From Bacteroidales bacterium (GTDB taxonomy: Bacteria > Bacteroidota > Bacteroidia > Bacteroidales > UBA1402): a stretch of DNA of 64,000 nt. Below the pieces are notes generated by a model. It saw nothing but the letters and a program-made list of their open reading frames with translations. It had not been told where the DNA came from and did not search any database. The DNA lies in NCBI GenBank assembly GCA_045627385.1, contig JAZQNO010000028.1, positions 41,400 to 105,399 on the forward strand, given 5' to 3'. Below are positions 26,501 to 42,978 of this stretch, piece by piece (positions within the stretch are counted from its first letter, which is position 1; every line of letters starts with the position of its first letter). The position numbers were made by a program, and so were the translations under genes.

Positions 26501-26708
26501 TGACCTTGTTGAAAGAAAATCGTCCGGCAAAGTCGGTCACGGTACCGTTCACCATCATGGAGTCCTGTGCCCGCAGCATTCTCACGGTCGCCATTTCGAC
26601 CGCGCCTTCATTGACCTTGTCAAGCACCTTTCCTTGAAGGGTGTACTGGGCTGAAACCCTGACAAAGCAGGTCAGACAGCAAATAATGGTGACGAGTTTT
26701 CGCAACAT
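23592..26708 (-). CDS. Outer-membrane beta-barrel protein with N-terminal CarboxypepD_reg-like domain and plug-like segment (OMP_b-brl_3-type), paralog 1
   Basis: Signal peptide, then YTLQGKVLD...GNYIIEVKYLTYK (carboxypeptidase-regulatory fold), then LFKRLPGFVVD...VNGESISRIRVDGKKFF (plug-like). A long Asn/Ser/Tyr/Thr-rich barrel ends in ...LTYRVRRF and is followed by a 95-aa low-complexity tail. Confidence 0.75.
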   Translation of the reverse strand: MLRKLVTIICCLTCFVRVSAQYTLQGKVLDKVNEGAVEMATVRMLRAQDSMMVNGTVTDFAGRFSFNKVSNGNYIIEVKYLTYKTQFVNVEIKGKSRILNNIMMEEDVKMLKEAEVSGMAAQMIVKGDTVEYNAGAFKLQEDAVVEDLFKRLPGFVVDVDGNITVNGESISRIRVDGKKFFDGDIEMVTKNLTADMIDKVQVIDEKSEMAQLTGVEDGETKRIINLKIKPDRNKGTFGNLGGGLGADYDKGFKDYVSPTYRNSNYRSEPYDRWIDKFIDEDARYNANTMINWFNKDIRTSLTAGANNANGSRSSRGAGNRGWSGGSGITSTQNIGVNNSMSFKGDSVDMSGHITYNHSTNQGRSSSKTESWLRDVTSADTSFSRSYSVSNNASLNYDLHWKLDTLNTLVIQPNLSYGFNSSHSDRTFEYYTNGDTTSWGNSANDNSSRNVNAGLTVMFSHKSGKKQGRTLTGNLRGNFSNSKGEGTNISNKYMPGDSADIRNQRNKNRSDNYSLSFRGSFVEPLWNIYNVIEFNGSVNYSNRSSVRDQYDYDELTGEWTSWNEEYSNETWNRSLSEDLSLNYNYRGTNLNLTAGMTAQPSQSYSYTLYGDGTVRDIPNSVFNYSPSLNVRWNLGGNRREYVRVEYRGRSSEPSIQQMQPVKNNTNAMRETVGNPYLLPSFAHTMRLQYSKSNQVTFASFSTSLNATVTKDALVSNSIYDASGKQYSQTVNAERDPFNLNGSVMYNRPIIQNRLHLNTNTSASYQQRIGYSSRNVALENIDPNDIIDGKLVLGDRSITDNYSVSENLSLTLTHDIIEVGARGQFRYSNTLNNLNTSTGNRSTINWSTSGNVTLHLPYNINIDNNLSFNARQGYAGFDRNELLWNASINAPVFKKKFTLQLSANDILRQRQNINQNIGDNSVSYSQSDMLTSYFMLSLTYRVRRFGGRPGGRGQGMNQGSRARRDVIAEANSTMGSDDSESAAANGDNGNSFQAPAEMPTGNMNGGRMGGSRGGNMGGGGFNGGGFGGGAPGGMGGGRGF

Positions 26709-26744: not shown

Positions 26745-29675
26745 TCACATACCCATCGGCGGGAAGCCTCCCATGCCGCCGCCCATAGGCATACCTCCTC
26801 CCATCATTCCCTGACCGCGACCTTGACCGCCTTGTCCGCGGCCCTGTCCGCGACCTTGGCCGCGCTGGCCTTCCATACCGGGCATGCCGTAGCCGCCCAT
26901 CATGTTGTCACGGCTGGCACCGCCGGCGAAACGGGCGATCTTCCAGGTGACTGTCAGCAGGAAATAAGAGGGGAGAGTGTTGTATTTGTTGTAGGAGATG
27001 TAGTTGTCGCCGATGTTCTGGCTGATGTTGAGACGCTGGCGCAGAATGTCGGTCATGCTCAGACTGAGCGTGACTTTGTTGCGGATGGTCTTGTCGATGG
27101 AAGCGTTCCACAGCACTTCGCTCTGGTCGAAGTTGGCATAGCCCTGACGGTTGCTGTAGCTGAGGTCGGTGGCGATGTTGATGCTGTAGGGAAGATGCAG
27201 GTTGATGTTGCCGCTGCCCGACCAGTTCATCGTATTCTGGATGTTGTTGCTCAGATGGTTGAAAGTGTGGTTGTAGCTGAACGAACCGCGAGCGCCGATT
27301 TCGATGATGTCCTGAGTGAGGGTCAGCGAAAGGTTTTCGTTGGCTCCGTAGCTCTGTGTAAGGCTCTCGTCGCCTCGTGCCAGATTGTTGATGTCGATGA
27401 TTTCGCCAGCCACCATGCGACGGGTGTAGCCCACGCGCTCCTGGTAGTTGACGGTGGTGCGGGTGTTGAGGTGGAGCAGGTTGGTGATGAGGGGCGTGTT
27501 GTACATCAGGCTGCCGTTCATGTTGAAAGGCATGCGGTCGGCGTTGACCGTCTGGTTGTACTGTTTGCCGGTGGCATCGTAGATACTGTTGGAAACCAGG
27601 GCGTTCTGAGTGAACGAACCGAAGAGAGTCACGTTCCACGAAGCGAAGGTGACTGCGTTGAAGCGGGTCATGATCAGACGCAGGTTCTGGCTGTAGGAGG
27701 GATTCAGTTCGGCGTTTCCGACGGTTTCATGCATCAGGTTTTCGTTGTTCTTGACTGGCTGCATCTGGGTGACGCTGGGCTGCTGGGTGTTGCCGCGGTA
27801 TTCCATGCGCAGGAAATTGCGGCGGTCGCCGAAGTTGTAGCGCACGCTCAGGGTAGGCGAGTAGTTGACAATCTTCTGGTCAACCTCATAAGGGTCTTCT
27901 CCGTTGAGATAGGTGGTGCGGCTGTAGTTCTGGCTGGGCTGCACGCGCATGCCGGCCATCACGTTGACGGTGCCGTCGTTGTAGCGGTAGTTCAGTTCGG
28001 CCACCTCAGACATGCTGCGGTTGAGGTAGTCGTTGCTGTATTCGGTGTCGATGACGGTGTATTCACCGCTGGCATCCTGGTCGTACTGGTTCTTGTCGGA
28101 CGTACGGCTGTTGTAGTTGAACGATGCCGAAACTTCGACGAAGTTCTTCAGGTTCCAGAGGGGCTCGACATAGGAACTTCTCAGACCCAGGCTGTAGTTG
28201 TCGGAACCGTTGTCGGTCATCTGGTCCACGATGGTCTGGTCGTCGGGAGTGTTCTTTTCGGAGTAGTTGAAACTGTTGGTGGTCGTCTGGCCCAGCGAAC
28301 CGTTGGCCTGGGTGGTGAAGGTGCGGCCGGCGCGCTTGGCCGATTTGTGGCTGTAGATGAGGTTCAGTCGGGTGTTGAGGTTGTCCGATACGCTGGAGTT
28401 CTGCGAGCCGCCCCAAGAGGTGGAGTCGCCGTTGGTGTAGTAGTCGTATTCGGACCAACTATTGGAAGTGCTGCGGCTGAAACTGAGGTTGGGCTGGATG
28501 ATGAGAGTGTTGAGGGTGTCGATGTGCCATTCGACTTCGAAGCGGAAATTGCTGTTGTTGATGTCGGAGACAGAACCGTTGCGCGAATTATTGGTCAGCG
28601 TATCGCCGGCCAGCCAGCTGTCGCGGCTGCTTTCGCTGTTGTTGGTGTTGTGTGAGTGGTTGTAGGAAATGTCGCCGCCTGCCAGCAGGTCGTCGCTGAA
28701 AGCCGTGTTGTTGTTGACACCGATGTTCTGGGTGCTGGTGATGCCGCCGCTGGCGCCGCCCCATCCGCCCATGCCGCGTCCGCTGCGGCTGGTGTTGGTG
28801 TTGTTGGCACCGGCCACCAGAGAGGTCTGGGTGTCGCCCAGCATGAAGTTGATGAAGGTGTTGGCATTGTAACGGGCGTCATTCTCCATGAACTGGCTCC
28901 AGTCATAGTCGGGCGAGATGTAGTTCTGGTCCATGTCGGCACCGCCGGCTCCGCTTACATTGCCGAAAATGCCTTTACGGCGGTTCTTTTTGAGGGTGAT
29001 GTTGATAATCCGCTCCGTGTTGTCGTCTTCGAAACCGGTCAGTTTGGCCATATCGGATTTTTCGTCGATGACCTGAATCTTCTCAACCATGTCGGCGGTC
29101 AGGTTCTTGGTGGTCATCTGAATGTCGCCGTCGAAGAATTTCTTTCCGTCCACTTTGATGCGCGAGATGGTCTCGCCGTTGACCGTGATGCTTCCGCCGC
29201 TGACTTCCACACCTGGCAGACGTTTGAGAAGGTCTTCAACCACAGCGTTCTCGGCCGTTTTGAAGGCGGCCGCATTGAATTCCATCGTGTCGACTTTGAC
29301 AATCATCTGGGCGGCCATTCCGGTCACCTGTACGGCACTCAGATTCTGTACGTTTTCTTCGAGCAGGATATTCTTGAGAATCATCGAACGGCCTTTGACT
29401 TCGACTGGTTCATATTTGGTGATGTAACCCAAAAATTTGACTTCGATGAGGTATTTGCCACTCTTGACGCGGTTGAGTGAGAAGCTTCCGAACTGGTCGG
29501 TGGCGGCTCCGGTGACATAGGAAGAGTCTTTCTGATTGAGCAATCTGACGGTGGCCATTTCGATGGCGCCGTCAGTGGCCTTGTCCAGCACTTTGGACTG
29601 GATGGTGTAGTCGGCCGCCATTACAGCGGTGAAAGTCAGCAGAATAAGTAGGCAGGAGAGGAGGATACGTTTCAT
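26745..29675 (-). CDS. Outer-membrane beta-barrel protein, paralog 2 of the gene at 23592-26708
   Basis: Same architecture, and collinear similarity to paralog 1 throughout (for example ...IEMATVRLL..., LLKRLPGVEV...VNGETISRIKVDGKKFFDGDI). The barrel ends in ...TWKIARF and is followed by a 60-aa Gly/Met/Arg/Gln tail. Confidence 0.75.
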   Translation of the reverse strand: MKRILLSCLLILLTFTAVMAADYTIQSKVLDKATDGAIEMATVRLLNQKDSSYVTGAATDQFGSFSLNRVKSGKYLIEVKFLGYITKYEPVEVKGRSMILKNILLEENVQNLSAVQVTGMAAQMIVKVDTMEFNAAAFKTAENAVVEDLLKRLPGVEVSGGSITVNGETISRIKVDGKKFFDGDIQMTTKNLTADMVEKIQVIDEKSDMAKLTGFEDDNTERIINITLKKNRRKGIFGNVSGAGGADMDQNYISPDYDWSQFMENDARYNANTFINFMLGDTQTSLVAGANNTNTSRSGRGMGGWGGASGGITSTQNIGVNNNTAFSDDLLAGGDISYNHSHNTNNSESSRDSWLAGDTLTNNSRNGSVSDINNSNFRFEVEWHIDTLNTLIIQPNLSFSRSTSNSWSEYDYYTNGDSTSWGGSQNSSVSDNLNTRLNLIYSHKSAKRAGRTFTTQANGSLGQTTTNSFNYSEKNTPDDQTIVDQMTDNGSDNYSLGLRSSYVEPLWNLKNFVEVSASFNYNSRTSDKNQYDQDASGEYTVIDTEYSNDYLNRSMSEVAELNYRYNDGTVNVMAGMRVQPSQNYSRTTYLNGEDPYEVDQKIVNYSPTLSVRYNFGDRRNFLRMEYRGNTQQPSVTQMQPVKNNENLMHETVGNAELNPSYSQNLRLIMTRFNAVTFASWNVTLFGSFTQNALVSNSIYDATGKQYNQTVNADRMPFNMNGSLMYNTPLITNLLHLNTRTTVNYQERVGYTRRMVAGEIIDINNLARGDESLTQSYGANENLSLTLTQDIIEIGARGSFSYNHTFNHLSNNIQNTMNWSGSGNINLHLPYSINIATDLSYSNRQGYANFDQSEVLWNASIDKTIRNKVTLSLSMTDILRQRLNISQNIGDNYISYNKYNTLPSYFLLTVTWKIARFAGGASRDNMMGGYGMPGMEGQRGQGRGQGRGQGGQGRGQGMMGGGMPMGGGMGGFPPMGM

Positions 29676-29824
29676 TTGAAATACACTTCTTTTTTTTTGT
29701 TCGAACCTTTGATGGAACGGATTTTGCTTGGTTTAATAAGAGCCCGCGAATTTACATTTTTTATATGAATAATGGATTAGTGAAAAAAAATGTGTCGAAA
29801 GGCGAATTGTTAGGGGAATTGCGT

Positions 29825-29832
29825 TATTTTTG
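29825..29832 (+). promoter_or_regulatory. Candidate -7 box (TATTTTTG) for the kduI-led array
   Basis: Matches TAnnTTTG 35 nt upstream of the ATG at 29867. It lies inside the longer track ORF (29765), which supports the shorter start. Confidence 0.5.
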
Positions 29833-29866
29833 CAAGTTAAGAGAACAATCACTAAAACCATTGGAT

Positions 29867-30709
29867 ATGAAGACAAACTACGAAGTACGTTATGCAGCCC
29901 ATCCTGAGGATGCGAAAAGTTACGACACCACCCGGATCCGTCGCGATTTCCTTATTGAAAAGGTCTTTGCGGCTGACGAAGTCAATATGGTCTATTCCAT
30001 GTACGACCGCATGGTCGTCGGCGGAGCCATGCCTGTGAAGGAATCTCTCAAACTGGAAGCCATCGATCCTCTGAAGGCTCCTTATTTCCTGACCCGTCGC
30101 GAACTGGGCATTTTCAACGTCGGCGGTGCCGGCCGTGTCCGTCACGGAGACGAGGTCTTCGAACTCGATTACAAGGAGGCTCTCTATCTGGGACGCGGCG
30201 ACAAGGACGTCGTTTTCGAGAGCAAGGACGCCGCCCATCCCGCCAAGTTCTATTTCAATTCCACCACGGCTCACGCGCTTTATCCCGACCGCAAGGTGAC
30301 CAAAGCCGATGCCGTCGTGGCGCACATGGGTTCGCTTGAAATGAGCAACGAACGCAACATCAACAAAATGCTGGTCAACCAAGTGCTGCCTACCTGCCAG
30401 CTCCAGATGGGCATGACCGAACTGGCCACCGGTTCTGTCTGGAACACGATGCCGGCCCACACCCACAGCCGCCGTATGGAGGCCTATTTCTATTTCGAGG
30501 TTCCCGAAGACCAGGCTGTCTGCCACTTCATGGGCGAGATCGACGAGACCCGCCACATCTGGATGAAGGGCGACCAGGCCGTTCTCAGCCCCGAATGGAG
30601 CATCCATAGCGCCGCCGCCACCCACAACTATACCTTCATCTGGGGCATGGGCGGTGAGAACCTCGACTACGGTGACCAGGACTTCAGCCTCATCACGGAT
30701 CTCAAATGA
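29867..30709 (+). CDS. kduI: 5-dehydro-4-deoxy-D-glucuronate isomerase
   Basis: Start set at 29867 (MKTNYEVRYAAHPEDAK). 280 aa with a cupin metal site HTHSRRMEAYFYF. Full-length KduI resemblance. Confidence 0.92.
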   Translation: MKTNYEVRYAAHPEDAKSYDTTRIRRDFLIEKVFAADEVNMVYSMYDRMVVGGAMPVKESLKLEAIDPLKAPYFLTRRELGIFNVGGAGRVRHGDEVFELDYKEALYLGRGDKDVVFESKDAAHPAKFYFNSTTAHALYPDRKVTKADAVVAHMGSLEMSNERNINKMLVNQVLPTCQLQMGMTELATGSVWNTMPAHTHSRRMEAYFYFEVPEDQAVCHFMGEIDETRHIWMKGDQAVLSPEWSIHSAAATHNYTFIWGMGGENLDYGDQDFSLITDLK

Positions 30710-30756
30710 CGAATCGACCAATCAACTAATTAATAACAATTCAAACTTTTACAATT

Positions 30757-30915
30757 ATGAAAATTATCGGTTTACTTGTATCTGCCGTCTGCTCGTACCT
30801 CTGCTACAATCTGGCAAAAAAGAGCGGTAAGAATGCCATCCTTGCAGCTGTTCTGGGATTCATCTTCTCCATCATCTCTCTGATTGTCTATTTTCTGCTC
30901 AGCCGCAAGAAATAA
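30757..30915 (+). CDS. Unlisted small ORF: 52-aa predicted two-TM membrane protein
   Basis: My own translation is MKIIGLLVSAVCSYLCYNLAKKSGKNAILAAVLGFIFSIISLIVYFLLSRKK*. It fills the kduI-kduD gap and has two hydrophobic helices joined by KKSGKN. It falls below the 60-aa cutoff of the ORF track. Confidence 0.5.
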   Translation: MKIIGLLVSAVCSYLCYNLAKKSGKNAILAAVLGFIFSIISLIVYFLLSRKK

Positions 30916-30936
30916 GAGCATAATTCGATATCAGGT

Positions 30937-31740
30937 ATGAACAACCCGTTTTCACTTGAAGGGAAGAACGCTTGGATCACAGGCGCTTCCTACGGTATCG
31001 GCTTCAACATCGCCAAGGCTTTTGTCGCTGCCGGTATCAAGAACATCATCTTCAACGACATCAACGAAGCCGCCCTTCAGCGCGGCCTGGACAACTATAA
31101 GGAGGCCGGCATCACCAACGTGAAGGGCTATGTCTGCGACGTCACCGACGAAGTGGCCATCAAGGCTCTGGTGGAGACCATCCACAAGGAAGTCGGTCAG
31201 AACGACATTCTGGTCAACAACGCCGGCATCATCAAACGCATCCCGATGCATGAGATGAAGCGTGCCGAATTCCAGCAGGTCATCGACATCGACCTGGTGG
31301 CTCCGTATATCGTCTCCTCCGCAGTCATTCCCGAAATGATGGAGCGTCGCGAGGGCAAGATCATCAACATCTGTTCGATGATGAGCGAACTGGGACGTGA
31401 AACCGTCAGCGCCTACGCCGCCGCCAAAGGCGGTCTGAAGATGCTCACCCGCAACATCTGTTCGGAATACGGTGAATACAACATCCAGTGCAACGCCATC
31501 GGACCGGGCTACATCGCCACTCCTCAGACGGCTCCTCTGCGCGAGCGTCAGCCGGATGGCAGCCGTCATCCTTTCGACAGCTTCATCTGCGCCAAGACTC
31601 CTGCCGGCCGCTGGCTCGAGCCCGAAGAACTGGGCGGACCCGCCGTCTTCCTGGCTTCGCACGCTTCCGATGCCGTCAATGGCCACGTCCTCTATGTGGA
31701 CGGCGGTATTCTGGCCTATATCGGCAAACAACCCAAATGA
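30937..31740 (+). CDS. kduD: SDR oxidoreductase, KduD / gluconate-5-dehydrogenase type
   Basis: The motifs ITGASYGIG (TGxxxGxG), NNAG and YAAAKGG (YxxxK) are present, and it is adjacent to kduI. Confidence 0.85.
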   Translation: MNNPFSLEGKNAWITGASYGIGFNIAKAFVAAGIKNIIFNDINEAALQRGLDNYKEAGITNVKGYVCDVTDEVAIKALVETIHKEVGQNDILVNNAGIIKRIPMHEMKRAEFQQVIDIDLVAPYIVSSAVIPEMMERREGKIINICSMMSELGRETVSAYAAAKGGLKMLTRNICSEYGEYNIQCNAIGPGYIATPQTAPLRERQPDGSRHPFDSFICAKTPAGRWLEPEELGGPAVFLASHASDAVNGHVLYVDGGILAYIGKQPK

Positions 31741-31749
31741 TCTGCGGAT

Positions 31750-33036
31750 ATGAAGAAGTGTTTTTATCTCCTGGTCGCTGCGGCCTTGCTGCTGAGCTCC
31801 TGCTGCAAGCAGTACGACGCACCGAAGGCCAAGCTCAACAAGGTCGATTTCCAGACGGAAATCGACGGCAAGAAGAATGACCTGTTCATTCTGAAGAACG
31901 CCAATGGCGTGGAAATCACGATGATGAACTTCGGTGCCCGCATCGTTTCCATCTGCACGCCCGACCGCGACGGCAAATTCGGCGATATCGTCCTCGGTTT
32001 CGACAATATCCAGCCTTATCTGGACAATTCCACCGATTTCGGCGCCTTCATCGGCCGCTACGGCAACCGCATCAATCTGGGCAAGTTCAGTTTGGATGGG
32101 GTAGACTACCAGCTGTCGACCAACAACTTCGGCCACAGTCTTCACGGCGGTGTCAAAGGTTTCCAGTACTGCATGTTCGACATCGAACAGACCGATGACC
32201 AGCATCTGGTGGCCAGCTATACGGCTCAGGACGGCGAAATGGGCTTCCCCGGCACTCTTCAGGCCAAAGCCACGTACACGCTGACCGATGCCAATGCTCT
32301 GGTCATCGCTTACGAGGCCGTCACCGACAAGCCGACCATCGTCAATCTGACCAACCACTCTTATTTCAATCTGAGCGGAGATGCCCAGAGCATTCTCAAC
32401 CACAAGCTCATGATCAATGCCGACGGTTTCACTCCGGTCGACACCACCTTCATGACGACCGGTGAGATCGCTTCTGTCGAAGGTACTCCGATGGATTTCC
32501 GTACGCCGACTTTCATCGGCGAGCGCATCGACCAGTATGATTTCGAACAGCTGAAGAACGGCAACGGGTACGACCACAACTGGGTGCTGAACACCACTTG
32601 CCCCAAACAGCTGGCCTGCAAGCTGGCCGATCCGAGCACCGGACGTACGCTGGAGGTCTACACCAGCGAACCCGGCGTTCAGGTCTACACGGGCAATTTC
32701 CTGGATGGAACGCTCACCGGCAAGAAGGGCGTCGTCTACAACCAGCGTGCTGCCATTTGTCTGGAAACCCAGCACTATCCCGACAGCCCCAATAAGCCTC
32801 AGTGGCCTTCTGTCGTGCTCCGTCCCGGCGAGACATACACCAGCCTGTGTGTCTATCAGTTCGGTGTCTGCAACAAATGCGGCGGCAAGGGTGAAGCTCA
32901 CGAGTGCGGTCAGTCCCACGAGTGCGGTGATTCCCATGATTGCGGTCAGGCTCAGGCCTGTGAGCGTCAGGGTGCCGCTCATGAATGTGCCCACGACGGT
33001 GCCGCTCACGAATGTCAGCATCAGTGCGAAAAATAA
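31750..33036 (+). CDS. galM: Aldose 1-epimerase (galactose mutarotase), lipoprotein, with an atypical 55-aa Cys/His-rich C-terminal extension
   Basis: The lipobox LLSSC and the motif IGRYGNRINLGKFSLDGVDYQLSTNNFGHSLHGG are present. The tail is CNKCGGKGEAHECGQSHECGDSHDCGQAQACERQGAAHECAHDGAAHECQHQCEK. Confidence 0.88.
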   Translation: MKKCFYLLVAAALLLSSCCKQYDAPKAKLNKVDFQTEIDGKKNDLFILKNANGVEITMMNFGARIVSICTPDRDGKFGDIVLGFDNIQPYLDNSTDFGAFIGRYGNRINLGKFSLDGVDYQLSTNNFGHSLHGGVKGFQYCMFDIEQTDDQHLVASYTAQDGEMGFPGTLQAKATYTLTDANALVIAYEAVTDKPTIVNLTNHSYFNLSGDAQSILNHKLMINADGFTPVDTTFMTTGEIASVEGTPMDFRTPTFIGERIDQYDFEQLKNGNGYDHNWVLNTTCPKQLACKLADPSTGRTLEVYTSEPGVQVYTGNFLDGTLTGKKGVVYNQRAAICLETQHYPDSPNKPQWPSVVLRPGETYTSLCVYQFGVCNKCGGKGEAHECGQSHECGDSHDCGQAQACERQGAAHECAHDGAAHECQHQCEK

Positions 33037-33057
33037 TCACACCTAATTAATATTAGT

Positions 33058-35034
33058 ATGAATTCCATTATCGAAAGTCTGAAGGCGAACGGATTTGCCA
33101 CCGTCGACTACATCGTATTCGCGGTCTATCTGGTCGTCCTTGTCGCGTTGGGCCTGTTCCTGTCGCGCAACAAAAATGGAAAGGAAAAGAGTTCAAACGA
33201 CTACTTCCTGGCCGGTAATACGTTGACTTGGTGGGCTGTAGGTGCTTCTCTGATCGCCGCTAACATTTCTGCCGAACAGTTCATCGGCATGTCGGGATCG
33301 GCCTATGCTTCGGGTATCGCCGTAGCTGCCTACGAACTGATGGCCGCCGCCACGCTGATTGTGGTGGCCAAGTTCATCCTGCCGGTGATGATCAAGCGCA
33401 AAATATACACCATTCCCCAGTTCCTGAGCGAGCGCTACAACAATGGGGTAGGACTGTCGTTCTCCATTTTCTGGCTGTTCCTCTACGTGTTCATCAACCT
33501 GACGTCCGTGTCGTGGCTGGGCGCTTTGGCCATCAAGCAGATTCTGGGTCTTCCGACCATTCAGGGCGTGTTCCTGGGCATGCAGGTCGACTATGTCACT
33601 CTGTTCATCATCATCGGTCTGTTCCTCATCGCCGGTATCTATTCCATCTACGGAGGTCTGGCGTCTGTCGCCTGGACGGATGTGCTGCAGGTCACTTTCC
33701 TGGTGGGTGGCGGTCTGATCACCGCCTATGCCGCTCTGGCCGTGCTGGCTCCGCATCTCGGTGCCGACAGTGCTCTGGGCGCTTTGGGCGCTGTCTTCCA
33801 GCGTCTGCAGGAAATTCCCGGTGACACCCATTTCCACCTGGTGGTTGAGCGCAATGCCGACTTGTATCCTGTTTTGCAGGGCACTGCCACTCAGGCTGCC
33901 GACCCGTACTTTACCATTCCCGGTATCGTGGTCATCGTCGGTGCGCTCTGGCTGACCAACATCGGCTACTGGGGCTTCAACCAGTACATCATCCAGAAGG
34001 GTCTGGCCGCCAAGAGTCTGGGCGAAGCCAAGAAGGGTCTCATTTTCGCCGCTTTCCTGAAGATTCTCATTCCCTTCATCGTCTGCATTCCCGGTGTCTG
34101 CGCCTTCCTTATCTGGAACGATCCGTCCCTGCACAGCAACATCGATCTGGCCGGTGCCATCACCCGCAGCGACGACGCTTATCCCTTCCTGATCCGCAAC
34201 TTCACGCCGGTATTTGTCAAGGGTCTGTCGTTTGCCGCTCTGACGGCTGCCGTCATTTCGTCTCTGGCTTCGATGTTCAACTCGACCTCGACCATCTTCA
34301 CGATGGACGTCTACAAGAAGTTCATCAAAAAGGACGCTTCCGACAAGAGTCTTGTCACCGTGGGCCGCATCACCTCTCTGGTGGCTCTGCTCATCGCTCT
34401 GGTGGCTGTCTATCCGATCATGGGCGGTGCCGACCAGGCTTTCCAGATCATTCAGGAATACTCCGGATTCGTCTATCCCGGTATCGTGGTCATCTTCGGT
34501 CTGGGTCTGCTGTGGAAGCGCTCTTCCGGTCCGGCTGCCATCGTGGCCGCTCTGGGCACTTTCGTCTTCAGCATCCTCTTCAAGTTCATTATGCCCAACA
34601 CGCCGTTCCTGCTCCGCATGGGATATGTGTTTGTGGTGCTGGTTGCCCTGTTCATCCCCATCTCGCTGCTCAGCAAGAAGGCTGTCAAGGCTGACGAACT
34701 TGATGAACACACCATCAGAACTCAGATGAAGTGGAGCCGCATACTTTCCTTCAGCGGTATCGTCTGCGCGCTGGCCGGTCTTGTCGCCAAGATCGCCTGG
34801 TGGTGCGGCGGCCATCTGGCCACCTTACAGTTCTACGGATTCGAAGCCATCTTCTTCCTGGCTGCCATGCTGATTGTCTTGGGCATCTACTTGAAGTCCA
34901 ATGCAAAGGACAAGGTGCAGGATCCGAAGGCTGTGGAGATTGACCTTTCGCTCTTCCGCACCGACAGAGGTTTCAACATCGGTGCCATCTGCATCATCGT
35001 CATCCTCGCAGTCCTCTACATCGCTCTCTGGTAA
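33058..35034 (+). CDS. Sodium:solute symporter (SGLT-type sugar transporter)
   Basis: The motif [32 protein letters not shown] is present. It is polytopic, and its position matches the transporter of Bacteroides arabinose loci. Confidence 0.88.
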
Positions 35035-35047
35035 CCCTTTGTACAAC

Positions 35048-35080
35048 GAAGGCACGGCGGAAACCGTCCGCCGTGCCTTC
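35048..35080 (+). terminator. Strong hairpin between the symporter and araD (terminator or attenuator)
   Basis: Perfect 14-bp stem GAAGGCACGGCGGA / TCCGCCGTGCCTTC with loop AACCG, followed by TTATATCTTC. The araD ATG is 16 nt downstream. Confidence 0.6.
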
Positions 35081-35095
35081 TTATATCTTCATCGT

Positions 35096-35788
35096 ATGTT
35101 AGAAGCACTCAAAGAACAAGTCTGCAAGGCCAATCTGGATCTGGTCAAGCAGGGACTGGTCATTTTCACATGGGGCAATGTGTCCGGTATCGACCGCGAA
35201 AAAGGCCTGGTCGTCATCAAACCCAGCGGTGTCGGCTATGACAACATGAAACCCAGCGACATGGTTGTCGTCGATCTTGCCACGGGCAAGACTGTCGAAG
35301 GGGAACTGAACCCTTCGAGCGACACGCCGACCCATCTGGAACTCTACAAGGCTTTTCCCAATATCAAAGGCATCGTGCACACTCACTCGACTTATGCCAC
35401 GGCTTTTGCCCAGGCTGGCCGTCCCATTCCGAACATCGGCACCACGCACGCGGATTATTTCTACAAGGACATTCCATGCACCCGCGATATGGTCGAGTCG
35501 GAAATGGCCGAGTATGAAAAGGAAACGGGTACCGTCATCATCGAGGCTTTCCGGAATGTCAATCCAGACCACACGCCTGGCGTGCTGGTGAAGAACCACG
35601 GTCCCTTCAGTTGGGGCACTTCTCCCGACAACGCTGTCTACAATGCCAAAGTGATGGAGCAGTGTGCCAAGATGGCCTTCATCTCGTTCACGCTCAATCC
35701 CAAGACCGACATGAATCCTCTGCTGGTCGAAAAGCATTACATGCGCAAGCACGGTCCGAATGCCTACTACGGTCAGAAAAAACATTAA
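35096..35788 (+). CDS. araD: L-ribulose-5-phosphate 4-epimerase
   Basis: Start set at the ATG at 35096 ([16 protein letters not shown]). Motifs [21 protein letters not shown] and VHTHS are present. 230 aa. Confidence 0.92.
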
Positions 35789-35807
35789 CAATTTAAATTT
35801 CAAGAAT

Positions 35808-37346
35808 ATGAACGCATTTGATCAATTTGAAATCTGGTGGATCACCGGTGCACAGCTGCTGTACGGAGGTGATGCCGTCGTGTCTGTCGACGCCCACTCC
35901 AAAGAAATGGTGGCCGGTCTGAACGATTCGGGCAACATTCCCGTGAAGATTGTCTATAAAGGCACTGCCAACAGCAGCAAGGAAGTGGAAGCCGTGATGA
36001 AGGCTGCCAACAACGACGAAAAGTGTGTCGGCATCATCACCTGGATGCATACTTTCTCGCCCGCCAAGATGTGGATCCACGGTCTGCAGGCTCTCAAGAA
36101 ACCGCTGCTGCATTTCCATACCCAGTACAATGCCGAAATTCCTTGGAATACCATGGACATGGATTTCATGAACCTCAACCAGAGCGCTCACGGCGACCGC
36201 GAATTCGGTCATATCTGTGCCCATATGAGAATCGCCCGCAAGGTGGTTTCCGGCTATTGGAAAGACGAGAAGCCTCAGAAGCAGATAGCTGTCTGGGCCC
36301 GCGTATGTGCCGCATGGGCAGACGCTCAGGACATGCGGATCCTGCGTTTCGGCGACCAGATGAACAATGTGGCCGTTACCGACGGCGACAAGGTCGAGGC
36401 CGAAGTGCGCATGGGTTACCACGTGGACTATTATCCCGTCTCCTCTCTGATGGATTATTACAAGAAGGTCACGGAGTCTGAAACCGATGAACTGGTGGAA
36501 GAATACAAGAGGCTCTACACCATCAAGATAGACGAGTCTGGCGAAGAAGTGTACTGGCGGAAGGTACGCAATGCCGCCAAGGCGGAAATCGCTCTTCGCC
36601 GCGTGCTGAAGGACGAAGGCGCGAAGGGCTTCACGACCAATTTCGATGACTTGGGCGGTGCCGACATCGACGATCCGAATTTCCTCGGTTTCGACCAGAT
36701 TCCCGGCCTGGCCTCGCAGCGCCTGATGGCCGAAGGCTACGGTTTCGGTGCCGAGGGCGACTGGAAATCGGCCGCTCTGTACCGTACGGTCTGGTTCATG
36801 GCTCAGGGTCTGCCCACCGGCTGTTCATTCCTCGAAGACTACACGCTGCATTTCGACGGTGCCAAGAGTGCCATCCTGCAGAGCCATATGCTGGAAGTCT
36901 GCCCGCTGATTGCGGCCGACAAGCCTCGTCTGGAGGTCCATTTCCTCGGTATCGGCATCCGCAAGCAACAGACAGCCCGTCTGGTGTTCGATTCGAAAGT
37001 GGGCGACGGCGTCACCGCTACCGTGATCGATCTTGGAAATCGTTTCCGTCTCATTGTCAATGACGTACATTGCATCAAACCGAAAAAACTGCCGAAACTG
37101 CCCGTGGCCAACGCTCTTTGGATTCCGCAGCCGAATTTCGAAGTCGGCACCGAAGCCTGGATTTTGGCCGGCGGTACGCACCATTCCTGCTTCTCCTACG
37201 ACCTAAGTGCCGAATATTGGGAAGACTATGCCGAAATCGCCGGCATTGAAATGGTTCACATCAACGGCAATACCACCATTGGCGAGTTCAAGAAAGAGCT
37301 CCGCATGAACGAAGTGTATTATCTGTTGAACAAAGCATTGAAATGA
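35808..37346 (+). CDS. araA: L-arabinose isomerase
   Basis: Start set at the ATG at 35808 (MNAFDQFEIWWITGAQ). Motifs WMHTFSPAKMW and NLNQSAHGDRE are present. 512 aa. Confidence 0.93.
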   Translation: MNAFDQFEIWWITGAQLLYGGDAVVSVDAHSKEMVAGLNDSGNIPVKIVYKGTANSSKEVEAVMKAANNDEKCVGIITWMHTFSPAKMWIHGLQALKKPLLHFHTQYNAEIPWNTMDMDFMNLNQSAHGDREFGHICAHMRIARKVVSGYWKDEKPQKQIAVWARVCAAWADAQDMRILRFGDQMNNVAVTDGDKVEAEVRMGYHVDYYPVSSLMDYYKKVTESETDELVEEYKRLYTIKIDESGEEVYWRKVRNAAKAEIALRRVLKDEGAKGFTTNFDDLGGADIDDPNFLGFDQIPGLASQRLMAEGYGFGAEGDWKSAALYRTVWFMAQGLPTGCSFLEDYTLHFDGAKSAILQSHMLEVCPLIAADKPRLEVHFLGIGIRKQQTARLVFDSKVGDGVTATVIDLGNRFRLIVNDVHCIKPKKLPKLPVANALWIPQPNFEVGTEAWILAGGTHHSCFSYDLSAEYWEDYAEIAGIEMVHINGNTTIGEFKKELRMNEVYYLLNKALK

Positions 37347-38944
37347 GTATGGCAGATCCCAAATCTTGTATTCGGGCCGGTAAGGCCGTTCTGGGTATCG
37401 AATTCGGTTCGACCCGCATCAAGGCCATCCTCGTCGACGAGGCTTTCAATCCCATCGCTCAAGGCGAGCACGAGTGGGAGAACCGTCTGGTCGACGGTCT
37501 GTGGACCTACAGCATCGATGATGTCTGGACGGGGTTCCAAGACTGTTATGCCAATTTGCGCAAAGATGTGCAGAATAAGTACGATATTGAAATAGAGAAG
37601 CTTGCATCGATCGGCATCAGTGCTATGATGCACGGTTACATGGCTTTCGACAAGGCTGGAAACATCCTGGTCCCCTTCCGCACCTGGCGCAACACCAATA
37701 CGGCCCAGGCGGCTGCCGAACTCTCCAAACTGTTCAATTTCAACATTCCTCTCCGTTGGAGCATTTCGCATCTGTACCAGTGCATCCTCAACGGTGACGA
37801 GCATGTCGGCAAAATCGATTTCCTGACCACGCTGGCCGGTTATGTCCATTGGCAGCTGACCGGAAAGAAGGTGTTGGGTGTGGGCGACGCTTCGGGCATG
37901 ATTCCGGTCGATCCCGCCACCAAGACCTACAACGCCTCTATGGTAGAGAAGTTTGACAGACTGATCGCTCCCAAGGCTTATCCCTGGAAATTGCTGGATA
38001 TCCTGCCTCAGTCGCTGAATGCCGGTCAGAACGCCGGTTTCCTCACCGAAGAAGGCGCCCGCAAACTGGATCCTTCGGGACATCTCCAGGCTGGAATTCC
38101 GCTCTGTCCTCCCGAAGGCGACGCAGGCACCGGAATGATCGCCACCAACGCGGTCAGACCCCGCACGGGCAACGTGTCGGCCGGCACTTCGTCCTTCTCG
38201 ATGATCGTACTCGAACGCGACCTGTCCAAGCCCCACGAAATCATCGATATCGTCACCACTCCCGACGGAAGTCCGGTGGCTATGGTCCATTGCAACAACT
38301 GCACATCCGATATGAATGCCTGGGTGGGCATTCTGAAAGAATATCTGCAGCTGATTGATGTGAAGATGGATTCCAAGACCATTTTCCGCTATCTTTTCAA
38401 CGAAGCGGCCAAGGGTGATGCCGATTGCGGCGGCATTCTGGTCTACAACTATGTATCGGGCGAACCGGTGACCGGTTTCTCCGAGGGCCGTCCCCTGGTG
38501 CTCCGTTCCGCCAGCGACAAGTTCTCTTTGGCCAACTTCATGCGCAGCATCATTTACGCCACCATCGGCGTGCTGAAAATCGGCAACGACATCCTTTTCA
38601 AAGAGGAGAAGATCAAAGTGGACCGTATCACCGGCCATGGCGGACTCTTCACCGTCAAGGGTGTCGCCCAGGGCTTCCTGGCCGCTGCACTGAATTCGCC
38701 CATTTCCGTCATGGAAACGGCGGGAGAGGGCGGTGCCTGGGGCATTGCTCTGCTGGCTTCCTATCTGGTCTGCAATGCCAAGGGACTTTCCTTGCCCGAT
38801 TGGCTCGACTCGGCTGTGTTTGCCGGCAATACGGGTATGGAAGTGGCTCCCGATCCTGAAGTGGTGAAGGGCTTCAACGCCTATATCGAGGCTTATCAGG
38901 CCTGTCTGCCCGTCGAGGCGGCTGCCGTTGCCTGCAAGAAATGA
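37343..38944 (+). CDS. araB: FGGY-family kinase, probable L-ribulokinase
   Basis: The N-terminal ATPase motif LGIEFGSTRIKA is present. There is a 4-nt ATGA overlap with araA, and the operon position fits. Confidence 0.8.
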   Translation: MSMADPKSCIRAGKAVLGIEFGSTRIKAILVDEAFNPIAQGEHEWENRLVDGLWTYSIDDVWTGFQDCYANLRKDVQNKYDIEIEKLASIGISAMMHGYMAFDKAGNILVPFRTWRNTNTAQAAAELSKLFNFNIPLRWSISHLYQCILNGDEHVGKIDFLTTLAGYVHWQLTGKKVLGVGDASGMIPVDPATKTYNASMVEKFDRLIAPKAYPWKLLDILPQSLNAGQNAGFLTEEGARKLDPSGHLQAGIPLCPPEGDAGTGMIATNAVRPRTGNVSAGTSSFSMIVLERDLSKPHEIIDIVTTPDGSPVAMVHCNNCTSDMNAWVGILKEYLQLIDVKMDSKTIFRYLFNEAAKGDADCGGILVYNYVSGEPVTGFSEGRPLVLRSASDKFSLANFMRSIIYATIGVLKIGNDILFKEEKIKVDRITGHGGLFTVKGVAQGFLAAALNSPISVMETAGEGGAWGIALLASYLVCNAKGLSLPDWLDSAVFAGNTGMEVAPDPEVVKGFNAYIEAYQACLPVEAAAVACKK

Positions 38945-40929
38945 AGAAAATCCTATTCATAAGTCTGATGATGTCGTGTGTCCTGCCCGTAAAGGCAGGA
39001 CACACGGTCGTTTCGCCAGACGGCCTGCTGTCCGTGACCGTTTCCGACGAAGGCGGAAAGGCTTCCTATTCGGTGAGTTACGATGGCCATCCGGTGCTGG
39101 AACCCTCGGCCCTCGGCATTGAGACCGACCTCCATCATTTCTGTCAGGGACTCAAGCTGAGCGATTTCCGCACGGATACCGTCACAGACGACTACACGCT
39201 CGACCGCATCAAAACATCCCGTGTCCATTACGAAGCCCGGCGTTCAATCGCCACCTTTTCGACAGGCGAGGGCAGGAGCGAGGCTTCTTTCGGTGTGGAA
39301 TTCCAAGTGAGCGACCACAATGTCGCTTTCCGATACATTCTTCCCGAAGAGCGCGACCGGCGCTGTTCGGTGGTGCGTTCGGAGGAGACCTCCTTTCATT
39401 TTCCTGTCGCGGCGACGGCCTTTCTGACACCGCAGAGCCATGCCATGATCGGTTGGAAACGTTCCAAACCGTCTTATGAAGAGGAATACACGGTGGACCG
39501 GCCGGTAGGGAGCGCTTCCCAATACGGACACGGATTCACTTTTCCGGGCCTTTTCCGAGTGCCTGTGGACGCTAACAAGGGAAAGACCTCCGACAGCGAC
39601 ATTTGGGTGCTGGTCTCCGAAACCGGTGTGGACGGCCGTTTCTGCGGCAGCCGCCTGGACGAGCCCACGCCCGACGGCATTTATCGCATCGCCTATCCGA
39701 TGATGGAGGAAAACAACGGATTCGGCAGCACGGGCGCTCAGGTCACTCTGCCATGCCTGACTCCATGGCGCACGCTCACGGTCGGCGGTCTCAAGGATGT
39801 GGTGGAAACGACCGTTCCTTTCGATCTGGTCAGACCGCTGTACGAACCATCTGCGGACTATCGTTACGGCCGTTCCACCTGGAGCTGGATGGTCTGGGAC
39901 GATGCCAGCATCAACGAGAAAGACCTGAAAGCCTTCATCGACCTGGCGTCGGAAATGTCTTGGGAATACACCCTGATCGATGCCGGATGGGACCGCAATC
40001 TGGGTCGTGAAAAGATGGCCGAACTGGTCCGCTATGCCCGCGAGCGAAAGGTGGAAGTGTTTCTATGGTACAATTCCAGCGGCGCCTGGAACGACACAAG
40101 CCAGAGCCCCGTGGACCTCATGGGCGATCCGATTTCCCGCAAACGGGAAATGAAATGGATGCAGTCCTTGGGGGTGAAAGGCATCAAAGTGGATTTCTGG
40201 GGCGGCGACAAGCAGGAAACCATGCGCCTGTACGAGCAGGTGCTCAGCGATGCCGATGACCACGGACTTATGGTGATTTTCCACGGTTGCACTTTGCCGA
40301 GAGGCTGGGAGAGGATGTACCCCAATTATGTGGGAAGCGAGGCTGTTCTGGCTTCGGAAAACCTGAAGTTCAGCCAGCATGCCGACGACATGGAGGCCTT
40401 CAATGCCTGTCTGCATCCTTTCATACGCAATTCGGTCGGATGCATGGAATTCGGGGGTAGCGCCCTCAACCGTTTTTACAGCCGCGACAACCGGAGAGGC
40501 AACCGCCGTGTCACAGGTGATGCATTCGAACTGGCATGCGCGGTGCTTTTCCAAAACCCCATCCAAAATTTCGCCCTCACTCCGAACAATCTGCAGGATG
40601 CGCCCTCCGAGGCCATAGATTTCATGAGAAATGTCCCGACAGTCTGGGATGAAATCCGTTTCATCGACGGCTATCCCGGCCGTTATGTCGTGCTGGCCCG
40701 GCGCAGCGGCGACATCTGGTATCTGGCCGCTGTCAACGCCTGCCAGGAAACCTTGAAGCTCGACATTGACCTTTCCTTCATAAAAGATAGCGCTCCGACG
40801 CTTTACCTTGACGGAAATAATCTTAACTTTGCAGTCTCAAAACTGAAGCCCGACCGCAAGAGGCATGTGCGCCTCGAAATTCCCGGCAAGGGGGGAGCGG
40901 TCATCGTAGGCGAAAATAATGATAAATAA
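38941..40929 (+). CDS. Secreted glycoside hydrolase, GH97-like
   Basis: Signal peptide. The N-terminus VVSPDGLLSVTVSDEGGKASYSVSYDGHPVL and the core EYTLIDAGW...GVKGIKVDFWGGDKQ...VIFHGCTLPRGWERMYPN resemble GH97 (SusB-type) enzymes. Substrate unknown. Confidence 0.6.
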   Translation: MKKILFISLMMSCVLPVKAGHTVVSPDGLLSVTVSDEGGKASYSVSYDGHPVLEPSALGIETDLHHFCQGLKLSDFRTDTVTDDYTLDRIKTSRVHYEARRSIATFSTGEGRSEASFGVEFQVSDHNVAFRYILPEERDRRCSVVRSEETSFHFPVAATAFLTPQSHAMIGWKRSKPSYEEEYTVDRPVGSASQYGHGFTFPGLFRVPVDANKGKTSDSDIWVLVSETGVDGRFCGSRLDEPTPDGIYRIAYPMMEENNGFGSTGAQVTLPCLTPWRTLTVGGLKDVVETTVPFDLVRPLYEPSADYRYGRSTWSWMVWDDASINEKDLKAFIDLASEMSWEYTLIDAGWDRNLGREKMAELVRYARERKVEVFLWYNSSGAWNDTSQSPVDLMGDPISRKREMKWMQSLGVKGIKVDFWGGDKQETMRLYEQVLSDADDHGLMVIFHGCTLPRGWERMYPNYVGSEAVLASENLKFSQHADDMEAFNACLHPFIRNSVGCMEFGGSALNRFYSRDNRRGNRRVTGDAFELACAVLFQNPIQNFALTPNNLQDAPSEAIDFMRNVPTVWDEIRFIDGYPGRYVVLARRSGDIWYLAAVNACQETLKLDIDLSFIKDSAPTLYLDGNNLNFAVSKLKPDRKRHVRLEIPGKGGAVIVGENNDK

Positions 40930-40956
40930 CATCAATAATCTAACAATCAGGTTTTT

Positions 40957-42978
40957 ATGAACGACGTAAAAGTAATGAACCGCGCAGCCGACAACATCCG
41001 TATCCTGGCTGCCTCTATGGTTGAAAAAGCCAAGTCCGGTCACCCCGGCGGTGCCATGGGTGGTGCCGATTTCATCAATGTCCTCTATTCTGAGTATCTG
41101 AAGTACGATCCCGAAAATCCGGCTTGGATGGGTCGCGACCGCTTTTTCCTGGATCCCGGTCATATGGCTCCCATGCTCTATGCACAGCTGACTCTCATCG
41201 ATAAGTTCACGACTGACGAACTGCAGGTTCTCCGCCAGTGGGGCGCTCCCACCGCCGGCCATCCCGAGCGCAATATCGCCCGCGGTATCGAAAACACCTC
41301 AGGTCCTCTGGGTCAGGGTCACTGCTACGCTGTCGGTGCCGCCATCGCCGCCAAGTTCCTGGCTGCCCGTACCGGCAATCCCACTTTTGCCAAGGAAACC
41401 GTCTACGCCTACATCTCCGACGGTGGCGTGGAAGAGGAAATCTCGCAGGGCGCCGGTCGTCTGGCCGGTCACCTCGGATTGGACAACCTCATCATGTTCT
41501 ACGACTCCAACGACATCCAGCTTTCGACCGAATGTGCCGAAGTCACCAGCGAAAACACCGCTATGAAGTACAAGGCATGGGGTTGGAACGTCATTGAAAT
41601 CAACGGCAACGACTGCAAGCAGATCCGCAAGGCTCTCGACGCCGCCAAGAAGGAAAGCAAACGCCCGACCCTCATCATCGGCAAGTGCATCATGGGTAAG
41701 GGTGCCCGCAAGGAAGACAACAGCTCCTACGAGCGCAACTGCAAGACCCACGGCGCTCCTCTCGGTGGCGACGCCTATCGCAATACCGTCGTCAATCTGG
41801 GTGGCGATCCCGACAACGCATTCGTCGTATTCGACGATGTCAAGGCTCTGTATGCCGCCCGCAAGGCCGAACTCGAGAACATCTGCGCCGAGCGTTATGC
41901 CGAAGAGCAGGCTTGGGCAAAGGCCAATGCCGAACAGGCTGCACAGCTGGCAGACTGGTTCGAAGGCAAGGCTCCGAAGGTGGATTGGACGGCTGTCCAG
42001 CAGAAGGCCAACGATTCGACCCGTGGCGCTTCCGCCACCGTTCTGAGCGTTCTGGCTCAGCAGGTTCCCAACATGATCTGCGCCAGCGCCGACCTTTCCA
42101 ACTCGGACAAGACCGATGGTTTCCTCAAAAAGACCCACGCTTTCGTCAAGGGCGATTTCAGCGGTGCCTTCTTCCAGGCCGGTGTGGCCGAACTGACGAT
42201 GGCCTGCTGCTGCATCGGTATGGCTCTGCACGGCGGTGTCATTCCCGCTTGCGGTACCTTCTTCGTATTCAGCGATTATATGAAGCCTGCCGTCCGTATG
42301 GCCGCTCTGATGGAACTCCCCGTCAAGTTCATCTGGACTCACGATGCCTTCCGTGTCGGTGAAGACGGTCCTACCCACGAGCCCGTGGAGCAGGAAGCTC
42401 AGATCCGTCTGATGGAAAAACTCAAAAACCACAGCGGAAAGAACTCCATGCTGGTTCTCCGTCCCGCCGACGCCGAAGAAACGACCGTCTGCTGGAAACT
42501 GGCCATGGAAAACGTCAGCACTCCGACCGCTCTGCTCTTCTCCCGTCAGAACATCACTCTCTTGCCCGCCGGCACGGATTACGAGCAGGCAGCCAAGGGT
42601 GGTTACATCGTAGCCGGCGCTGACGAGAATCCCGATGTCATCCTGGTGGCTACCGGTTCCGAAGTATCCACACTTGTGGCTGGTACCGAACTGCTTCGTG
42701 CCGACGGCATCAAGGTTCGCGTGGTCAATGTTCCTTCCGAAGGTCTGTTCCGCAGCCAAAGCGAAGACTACCAGCAGGCTGTCCTGCCTTGTGGCGTGAA
42801 GAAATTCGGCATGACCGCCGGTCTGCCTGTCAATCTGCTCGGCCTGGTCGGCAGCGAAGGCAAGATCTGGGGCCTGGAAAGCTTCGGCTTCTCCGCTCCT
42901 TACAAGGTGCTCGACGAAAAGCTCGGTTTCAACGGACAGAACGTTTACGAGCAGGTCAAGGCCTTCCTGGGCAAATAA
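40957..42978 (+). CDS. tkt: Transketolase
   Basis: Motifs [11 protein letters not shown] and [20 protein letters not shown] are present. 673 aa. Confidence 0.95.

Follow-up and report, generated by a model that had tools for sequence, protein, structure and literature searches.

The window, a 64,000-nucleotide stretch of contig JAZQNO010000028.1 from an uncultured gut-type Bacteroidales lineage, contains an open reading frame (ORF; 31750..33036, (+) strand) whose product is a 428-aa lipoprotein aldose 1-epimerase (GalM). The polypeptide comprises a lipoprotein signal peptide (MKKCFYLLVAAALLLSS; 31750..31803), an aldose 1-epimerase β-sandwich domain (31882..32868) and a 55-residue Cys/His-rich low-complexity C-terminal tail (residues 374–428; 32869..33033), all encoded on the (+) strand. 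The tail, with the translation CNKCGGKGEAHECGQSHECGDSHDCGQAQACERQGAAHECAHDGAAHECQHQCEK, is followed by the stop codon at 33034–33036 (+). Judged by its composition, its variation among relatives and its predicted structure, the tail is most aptly viewed as a low-complexity Cys(/His)-rich appendage that is intrinsically disordered and evolves rapidly; a role in metal binding is tentatively proposed for it below.

The enzyme domain and the lipoprotein signal

The enzyme domain was delineated with Pfam, NCBIfam, structure alignment and AlphaFold2. The Pfam family PF01263 (Aldose_epim) matches aa 45–369 with an E value of 4.7e-89 and 299 bits, against a cut-off of 27, and covers profile positions 2–298 of 299. 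The NCBIfam model NF008277 of the galactose-1-epimerase subfamily is passed with 321.5 bits (cut-off 240), and the strict Leloir-pathway GalM equivalog TIGR02636 is failed with 329.6 bits (cut-off 397.65). By these profiles the host protein belongs to the aldose 1-epimerase family and is unexceptional within it. The human GALM structure 1snz aligns with residues 54–373 (E 2e-83), and the catalytic positions agree: H132, H203, D275 and E339 match identical residues of 1snz, where the chain index is the native number +2, and are invariant in the homologue alignment. The catalytic set of human GALM, as described by Thoden et al., consists of H107, H176, D243 and E307. By alignment, the GalM domain appears catalytically intact. 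The alignments to solved GalM structures reach residue 373 and stop at most one residue short of the C-termini of those structures; the 55 tail residues are thus an addition to a complete fold, as the initial annotation of this gene had proposed. The AlphaFold2 model, based on an alignment of 29 sequences, has a confident core, and its last β-strand comprises residues 363–373.

The lipoprotein signal, also claimed at that stage, is present. The lipobox at the N-terminus of GalM reads LLLSSC(C), MKKCFYLLVAAALLL-SSC being residues 1–18, and fits the pattern [LVI][ASTG][GAS]C; the lipobox Cys18 ends the signal peptide and is followed by a second Cys (C19). A comparable signal and lipobox are found at the start of 120/120 listed GalM homologues, and residues 1–31 of the window protein are weakly similar to the lipoprotein-signal model NF047408. 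Judging from the lipobox, mature GalM is probably lipid-anchored outside the cytoplasm and faces the periplasm. The residues CKQYDAPKAK after the lipobox Cys contain no acidic run. Such a run is the export signal of Bacteroidota lipoproteins, and a protein that lacks it would presumably face the periplasm. In the sub-lineage of the window the lipobox Cys is followed by at least one extra Cys (CCKQ, CCNG, CCKC, CCCK; window 31801–31806 and the N-termini of P0002, P0003 and P0005), and hence the membrane-anchored N-terminus would also carry free thiols. In tailed relatives further removed from the window, the lipobox Cys stands alone.

Sequence, repeats and predicted structure of the tail

The tail contains 9 Cys (16%), 7 His, 7 Glu, 3 Asp, 8 Gly and 8 Ala, with 0 aromatic and 0 aliphatic residues. 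Its motifs are four HEC, one HDC, one CxxC and two HECG. Translation of 32869–33033 reproduced exactly the residue counts, the HEC, HDC and CxxC motifs and the coordinates given in the initial annotation. The CxxC (C374-N-K-C377; 32869..32880 (+)) adjoins the last β-strand of the enzyme domain and is the sole tail element that shares its position with the closest relatives, in which it occurs as GxC-x2-C (P0002, P0003, P0005, P0011 and the P0012 cluster).

The remainder of the tail is largely repetitive. Four degenerate 18-nt (6-aa) units, GEAHEC, GQSHEC, GDSHDC and GQAQAC, occupy 32890..32961 (+), as delineated by Tandem Repeats Finder, a second repeat search and the codon layout; they are followed at 32962..33027 (+), by Tandem Repeats Finder and codon layout, by the 27-nt (9-aa) units ERQGAAHEC and AHDGAAHEC and a partial QHQC. 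Tandem Repeats Finder reports an 18-nt array of 2.8 copies (32899–32949) with 81% matches and a 27-nt array of 2.4 copies (32959–33024), and the second search finds three copies at 18-nt spacing. Both periods are multiples of 3, and by eye the protein pattern is (GxxH[ED]C)x4 followed by (xxxGAAHEC)x2. The two short DNA repeats noticed earlier, CACGAGTGCGGT at 32899 and 32917 and GCCGCTCAYGAATGT at 32974 and 33001, lie within the 18- and 27-nt arrays. The neighboring genes encode 1.1% Cys and 1.6% His, and the corresponding probabilities of at least 9 Cys and at least 7 His in 55 residues are 9e-9 and 3e-5, respectively. AlphaFold2 predicts no secondary structure for residues 382–428, with a pLDDT of ~ 30. 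The model of the long-repeat relative P0006, from a 10-sequence alignment, has a mean pLDDT of 43 and is too poor to interpret.

Searches with the tail alone returned little. A word-indexed search of 5.8e9 proteins gave 0 candidates, and phmmer against 1.84e9 representative proteins gave two matches only (P0128 and P0129), both translated junk repeats. A profile built from 28 tails had 603 word-sharing candidates, none of them at E ≤ 10. The tail has no match among PDB sequences, and NCBIfam has no match to it. A Pfam search at E ≤ 10 with the window tail and 9 others yielded none except two chance-level, non-metallothionein matches for one tail. The module is thus traceable by composition and pattern, and not by sequence homology.

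Several candidate assignments of the tail region were considered and rejected. Haem binding through CxxCH was rejected since the motif is missing from the tail. An HMA domain (PF00403; GMxCxxC, ferredoxin-like fold) was rejected in view of the lack of a Pfam match and of predicted secondary structure, and a four-helix bundle of the Csp copper-storage type because AlphaFold2 predicts no helices in the window tail. The C-terminal domain of type IX secretion, a folded β-sandwich of 70–100 aa, was rejected as neither Pfam nor NCBIfam gives a match and no strands are predicted. The shadow ORFs 32705..33046 (+) and 32714..33040 (−) are out-of-frame artefacts of the repeat.

Distribution and evolution of the tail

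The homologue set comprised the 120 best GalM homologues; within it, the 78 nearest sequences constitute a single clade of GalM from Bacteroidales arabinose loci. Cys-rich low-complexity C-terminal tails with at least 3 Cys, 14–176 aa in length, occur in 67 of these 78 proteins. The presence and length of the tail in relatives was a point raised at the outset, and most close orthologues indeed carry one, very variable in length and sequence. Tails are confined to the clade of 78, whose sister group is the ordinary lipoprotein GalM of the Bacteroides type (376 aa); parsimony on the core-domain tree gives one gain and ~ 10 losses. A scan of GTDB species representatives, whose best 80 loci were examined for tails and which gives no reliable estimate of rarity, found a tail in 1/80 (L001).

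The tails share 11–38% identity where the cores are 77–84% identical, and are nearly unalignable between sub-lineages. Their length varies 12-fold and their net charge ranges from −7 to +21, and the median Cys fraction over the 67 tails is 17.5%; across the lineages compared, the Cys density is held near 17–20% with unrelated tail sequences. The pooled composition of 43 tails is 21.5% Lys, 18% Cys, 13.6% Ala, 8% Asp, 7% Glu, 6% Gly and 1.1% His, with aromatic residues essentially absent. His is limited to the sub-lineage of the window (P0001–P0005, P0011 and the P0012 cluster). Judged from these sequences, Cys is the shared feature of the family, and the HECG/His motif highlighted in the initial annotation is a local variant of the window's sub-lineage and does not define the feature.

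The tails grow and shrink by in-frame tandem repeats, as read from the sequences of close relatives. In the long repeat tails the Cys residues mostly recur every 6 residues. Among the more than 90% identical proteins of the P0012 cluster (P0012, P0121–P0126; L001:9992–11302), a 13-aa (39-nt) unit, CEHQHQDCDKAQx, is present in 2, 3, 4 or 5 copies, which points to recent expansion and contraction of the repeat between strains. Other relatives contain up to ~ 30 copies of 6-aa units, for example CDKKAN.

In four orthologues of one subclade the dN/dS ratio is 0.14–0.16 for the tail and 0.03–0.055 for the core. In tail alignments, Cys columns are 86% conserved versus 73% for the other columns. By these estimates the tail is under purifying selection in that subclade, with a constraint ~ 3–4 times looser than that on the enzyme and acting mainly on Cys. 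The best explanation is that selection keeps a high Cys density, together with His in the window's sub-lineage, and no particular sequence. Cys counts are even in 27 and odd in 40 of the 67 tails, so there is no even-number bias, and obligatory structural disulfides are not favored. The motif D[ST][AILVMT], presumably the general O-glycosylation sequon of Bacteroidota, occurs 29 times in the 67 tails versus 7 times expected from shuffles, and not at all within the window tail (32869–33033). Most of the excess derives from one related subclade (MDTTQC…, KDSA/KDST; tails of P0026–P0049 and other relatives), and the counts are thus non-independent.

Operon context and other features of the window

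The gene order on the (+) strand, 29765..42978, is KduI, SDR, GalM with its tail, Na+/solute symporter, AraD, AraA, FGGY kinase, GH97 and transketolase. On the Pfam assignments, KduI spans 29765–30709, the SDR/KduD-like protein 30937–31740, the Na+/solute symporter 33058–35034, AraD ~ 35096–35788 (with a putative start), AraA 35760–37346, the AraB-like FGGY kinase 37343–38944, GH97 38941–40929 and transketolase 40957–42978. By this gene content, the locus is one of arabinose/uronate catabolism and GalM is the mutarotase of an L-arabinose utilization operon; it is solely the AraD/AraA/AraB and symporter context that suggests L-arabinose as its substrate. The same order surrounds the tailed orthologues in every related locus examined (L001, L081–L086, L207–L209). 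No hyp or ure genes occur in the GalM neighborhood, and no rRNA or tRNA family matches were found in the window. The window and 1.5 Mb of related loci contain no Cys-tailed proteins other than GalM.

The window and L001 are 91% identical in SDR, 86% in transketolase, 83% in KduI, 81% in the symporter, 80% in AraA and 72% in AraB; GalM is 72% identical overall and 78% in its core. In this comparison GalM has diverged more quickly than most of the other proteins of the operon. A strong terminator-like hairpin with 14 pairs, 10 of them G-C, is located at 35048–35080 (+), between the stop of the symporter (35034) and the probable start of AraD (35096), which suggests that transcription is interrupted or attenuated at this point within the ara cluster.

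Other proteins encoded in the window also have low-complexity C-termini. Tandem outer-membrane proteins with CarboxypepD_reg and OMP_b-brl_3 domains (23592–26708 (−) and 26745–29675 (−)) end in the Gly/Met-rich tails …GGNMGGGGFNGGGFGGGAPGGMGGGRGF and …GQGMMGGGMPMGGGMGGFPPMGM, which are reminiscent of the GGM tails of GroEL or of Met-rich Cu(I) motifs; homologues of this pair are found upstream of KduI in L001, L081–L083 and L209. A 500-aa signal-peptide protein (46350–47852 (+)) has a Ser-rich C-terminal tail of ~ 90 residues (…SSSRSSSSSYSGGSSS…). The Gly/Met-, Ser- and Cys-rich cases suggest that low-complexity C-terminal tails are common on exported proteins of the source genome.

Similar Cys-rich segments on other proteins

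A metagenome scan with a DNA pattern encoding CCK[D/E]…CCK…CC gave at least 120 loci (L087–L206). Among the matches listed, 95 motif matches lie in Cys-dense reading frames, and none of them is in GalM; as far as these frames can be read, Cys-rich segments of the CCK[D/E] type have no GalM specificity. Profile searches confirmed as carriers of a C-terminal Cys-rich tail NqrC (FMN_bind; the periplasmic subunit of Na+-NQR; L100, 2466–2519, and L165), a xylose-isomerase-like TIM-barrel lipoprotein (L155:1163–1303) and a MIP channel (L097:1623–1688); in a peptidase M13, also profile-confirmed, the segment is an internal insert (L154:1260–1334). The initial annotation had suggested metal buffering linked to sugar uptake, a link left unsupported by similar segments on the unrelated exported NqrC, HMA proteins and M13 peptidase.

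Exported HMA (MerP/CopZ-like) proteins also carry CCK-type tails (L119 and L124; by eye also L172, L182 and L195). In L124:2611–3144(−), L119:169–804(−) and L172:468–956(+) the tail follows a conserved ...Y(D/N)KLH(A/G)CCKY(D/E)R. These genes share their clusters with members of the HYC_CC_PP family, another HMA protein and a ResA-like thioredoxin, the last in L124. A large ORF that adjoins them resembles, by eye, a TonB-type receptor and has no NCBIfam match. The HMA clusters are the only direct link of such tails to metal handling.

Many tiny ORFs consist of a signal peptide or lipoprotein signal and a Cys-rich segment (L149, L141, L151/L163, L092, L126, L103 and others). A recurrent small secreted family (MTKFKLIGAA…AAGSCCAxMxCCKxGADCCKDxx…GHDMSG…KK; L090, L121, L122, L156, L158, L160, L183, L203) has a proteobacterial-looking signal peptide, CC pairs and a His/Met-rich end, and no NCBIfam or Pfam matches.

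Proposed function of the tail and alternatives

Composition, conservation pattern and the company that such segments keep suggest, by analogy, that the tail may be a disordered metallothionein-/SlyD-like thiolate metal-binding appendage in the periplasm. This is the reading we favor, tentatively, and we rate it somewhat short of probable. It is based on the metallothionein-like composition, on the conservation of Cys only, and on a disorder and a variability between orthologues that resemble those of SlyD; the precedent of the CorE sigma factor (see below), the association with HMA proteins and the lack of an even-number Cys bias point in the same direction. In such an appendage, multidentate ligation by thiolate and imidazole groups, with carboxylates in the lineage of the window, would hold soft or borderline ions such as Zn, Cu(I), Ni, Co, Cd and Fe, and the tail would serve as a small store or buffer of metal on the periplasmic side of the membrane. 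We infer the free tail thiols, the metal binding, the physiological role and the periplasmic location.

Several points weigh against metal binding. Mutarotases are metal-independent, and why an arabinose-induced mutarotase should store metal is not evident. No metal-homeostasis gene is present in the window around GalM, and the HMA association was seen with proteins other than GalM, in other Bacteroidota. The Cys spacing of 6 in the long repeat tails differs from the CxC/CxxC spacing of classical metallothioneins, and none of the curated metallothionein or metal-binding families of Pfam matched the window tail or 9 others. The ~ 10 independent losses in the clade show that the tail is dispensable for the enzyme, the subclade that provided the dN/dS estimates is a sister of the window's own, and a reduced state of the periplasmic thiols is assumed.

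If the tail does bind metal, gut and rumen Bacteroidales would decorate ordinary periplasmic enzymes with metallothionein-like appendages, a strategy of periplasmic metal buffering or scavenging that is undescribed for the phylum. Metal binding by the tail would then be relevant to the ways in which anaerobes acquire Zn, Cu, Ni and Co, or detoxify them, in settings where metals are scarce owing to sulfide. It would also draw attention to a set of Cys-rich low-complexity segments and mini-lipoproteins that lack annotation and escape domain databases because their sequence turnover is too fast. A broader and more speculative proposal, which we consider possible yet doubtful, is that in anaerobic Bacteroidales, and in other bacteria as well, Cys-rich K/D/E/G/A segments, locally rich in His, constitute an unrecognized and convergently evolving class of metallothionein-like modules that are exported and tethered to the membrane. 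Such modules, either free as tiny Cys-rich lipoproteins or appended to abundant proteins of the periplasm (GalM, NqrC, TIM-barrel isomerases and HMA proteins), would provide a periplasmic thiolate pool that captures or buffers thiophilic metals in sulfide-rich anoxic habitats, and the GalM tail would be one instance.

The main rival, which we regard as unlikely, is a thiol/disulfide redox role. As a thiol buffer in the periplasm, either sacrificial or reversible, the tail could protect against transient oxidants; alternatively, its Cys residues could engage in intermolecular disulfides and thereby tether or oligomerize the enzyme near the membrane or a partner. A CxxC conserved directly after the fold in the window's sub-lineage, and Cys as the sole conserved feature of the tail, are what such a role would lead one to expect, but the Cys counts have no even-number preference and the tail has no predicted fold for disulfides to stabilize. 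The ResA-like thiol-disulfide oxidoreductase that adjoins the HMA and Cys-tail genes in L124 is consistent with redox chemistry, whereas the conserved neighborhood of GalM lacks an oxidoreductase gene, and metal ligation is the better fit for the enrichment of His in the window's lineage and for the HMA association. From gut Bacteroidota, a glycoside hydrolase with a redox switch, periplasmic or intracellular, has recently been described (PMC12770490). A redox role of the tail, if true, would be relevant to the way in which obligate anaerobes shield their periplasm when exposed to oxygen.

Near-neutral low-complexity expansion, with slippage-prone repeats drifting at a tolerant C-terminus and acting at most as a spacer, is distinctly improbable. 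The extreme turnover of the tail relative to the core (11–38% vs 77–84% identity), the copy numbers that differ between strains, the ~ 10 losses in the clade and the Gly/Met-rich and Ser-rich tails on other exported proteins of the window would all fit drift. However, the tail dN/dS of 0.14–0.16 is far under 1, Cys density stays near 17–20% despite unrelated sequences and neighboring proteins with ~ 1% Cys, and like Cys-rich segments recur on unrelated exported proteins.

Other thiol chemistry is very unlikely. The high Cys density could also suit ligation of an Fe-S cluster, haem or polysulfide, and the sequon excess in some relatives' tails (29 vs 7 expected) could indicate a substrate for modification by RiPP-like crosslinks, lipidation or glycosylation; against this, the window tail lacks CxxCH, ferredoxin-type spacing and the sequon, the conserved neighborhood encodes neither a radical-SAM enzyme nor another maturase, and the excess comes mostly from one related subclade with non-independent counts.

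The chance that the tail is an artefact of assembly or annotation, with spurious read-through past the GalM fold caused by a frameshift or the loss of a stop codon, is negligible: the exact protein P0001 is recorded from one NCBI contig only and the +1 frame is also open over the tail region (ORF 32705..33046), but the codon log-odds over the tail are best in frame 0 (0.14 vs −0.51 and −1.75), the repeat periods are 18 and 27 nt, a Cys content this high has a chance probability of 9e-9, and the tail begins with the GxC-x2-C junction common to the nearest relatives. Tailed GalM proteins are drawn from independent NCBI, ENA, JGI and Logan assemblies, and tailed relatives occur on multiple contigs (P0006 on 16 and P0028 on 14); in-frame Cys-rich tails on orthologues from so many independent assemblies mean that frameshift read-through, which the initial annotation had named as a possible refutation, is effectively excluded, and that the tail is a real, translated C-terminal extension. 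Annotators should keep such tails and not trim them as read-through errors.

Comparison with known systems

As a candidate metal-binding appendage, the tail would act most like SlyD/Hpn-type tails and metallothioneins, and it is a member of neither group. The SlyD tail is unstructured, variable, rich in His, Cys, Asp and Glu, and binds metal; E. coli SlyD binds up to 7 Ni, and the His/Cys tail of H. pylori SlyD binds Ni or Zn (PMC7055735). Like the SlyD, Hpn, HypB and UreE tails, which are multidentate, the GalM tail is an unstructured terminal add-on rich in His, Cys, Asp, Glu and Gly, variable between orthologues and dispensable to its host. The window tail, dominated by His, Glu, Cys, Gly, Gln and Ala, is compositionally closest to this group and shares its disorder (7 His, 9 Cys, 7 Glu, 3 Asp; pLDDT ~ 30). 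The analogy with SlyD, HypB and UreE drawn in the initial annotation therefore holds for composition and disorder, and fails for location and role: those proteins are cytoplasmic maturation factors of Ni enzymes, whereas GalM is an exported lipoprotein with no hyp/ure context that would indicate Ni maturation. Over the GalM tail family, moreover, His is nearly absent (1.1%) and Lys and Cys dominate, and a sequence relationship is undetectable.

Metallothioneins, including the bacterial SmtA/BmtA and MymT, are short, low-complexity, free cytoplasmic proteins that are unfolded without metal. The GalM tails resemble them in a Cys content of 16–24%, in Lys/Ala/Gly/Ser/Asp fillers, in the lack of aromatic residues and, in many tails, in CC, CxC and CxxC motifs; the window tail itself lies within the metallothionein range of composition (Cys ~ 15–30%, no aromatics, low complexity). 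The GalM tail differs in being fused to an exported enzyme, in the lack of a Pfam metallothionein match and in the Cys spacing of 6 in the long tails.

HMA proteins of Bacteroidota (L119, L124, L172) have tails of the same K/D/E/G/C style, are likewise exported and belong to the same phylum. Their host domain, unlike GalM, binds metal itself, and their genes lie in metal-handling clusters. To our knowledge these tails have not been characterized experimentally. The ECF sigma factor CorE sets a precedent: it is an otherwise ordinary protein whose Cys-rich C-terminal extension binds Cu(I)/Cu(II) (PMC10141476). CorE is, however, a cytoplasmic regulator whose activity is controlled by the extension, and no regulatory coupling is evident for GalM.

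The nearest relatives without a tail, the ordinary 376-aa GalM proteins of Bacteroides and Prevotella, have the same fold, lipoprotein signal and catalytic residues. They are assumed to share the operon context, which was checked around the tailed orthologues only. Their chains end 2–5 residues past the last strand (…F[SG]V[DE]K), where the tail of the window protein continues. Neither the curated families and solved structures nor the literature yielded a mutarotase with such a tail, in agreement with the initial annotation, and no paper was found on exported Cys-rich low-complexity tails in Bacteroidales, a result that does not prove their absence from the literature. Set beside these systems, and with a function that is inferred, the GalM tail would be a novel instance of a low-complexity tail of the metal-binding type, carried by an exported enzyme and based on Cys rather than His.

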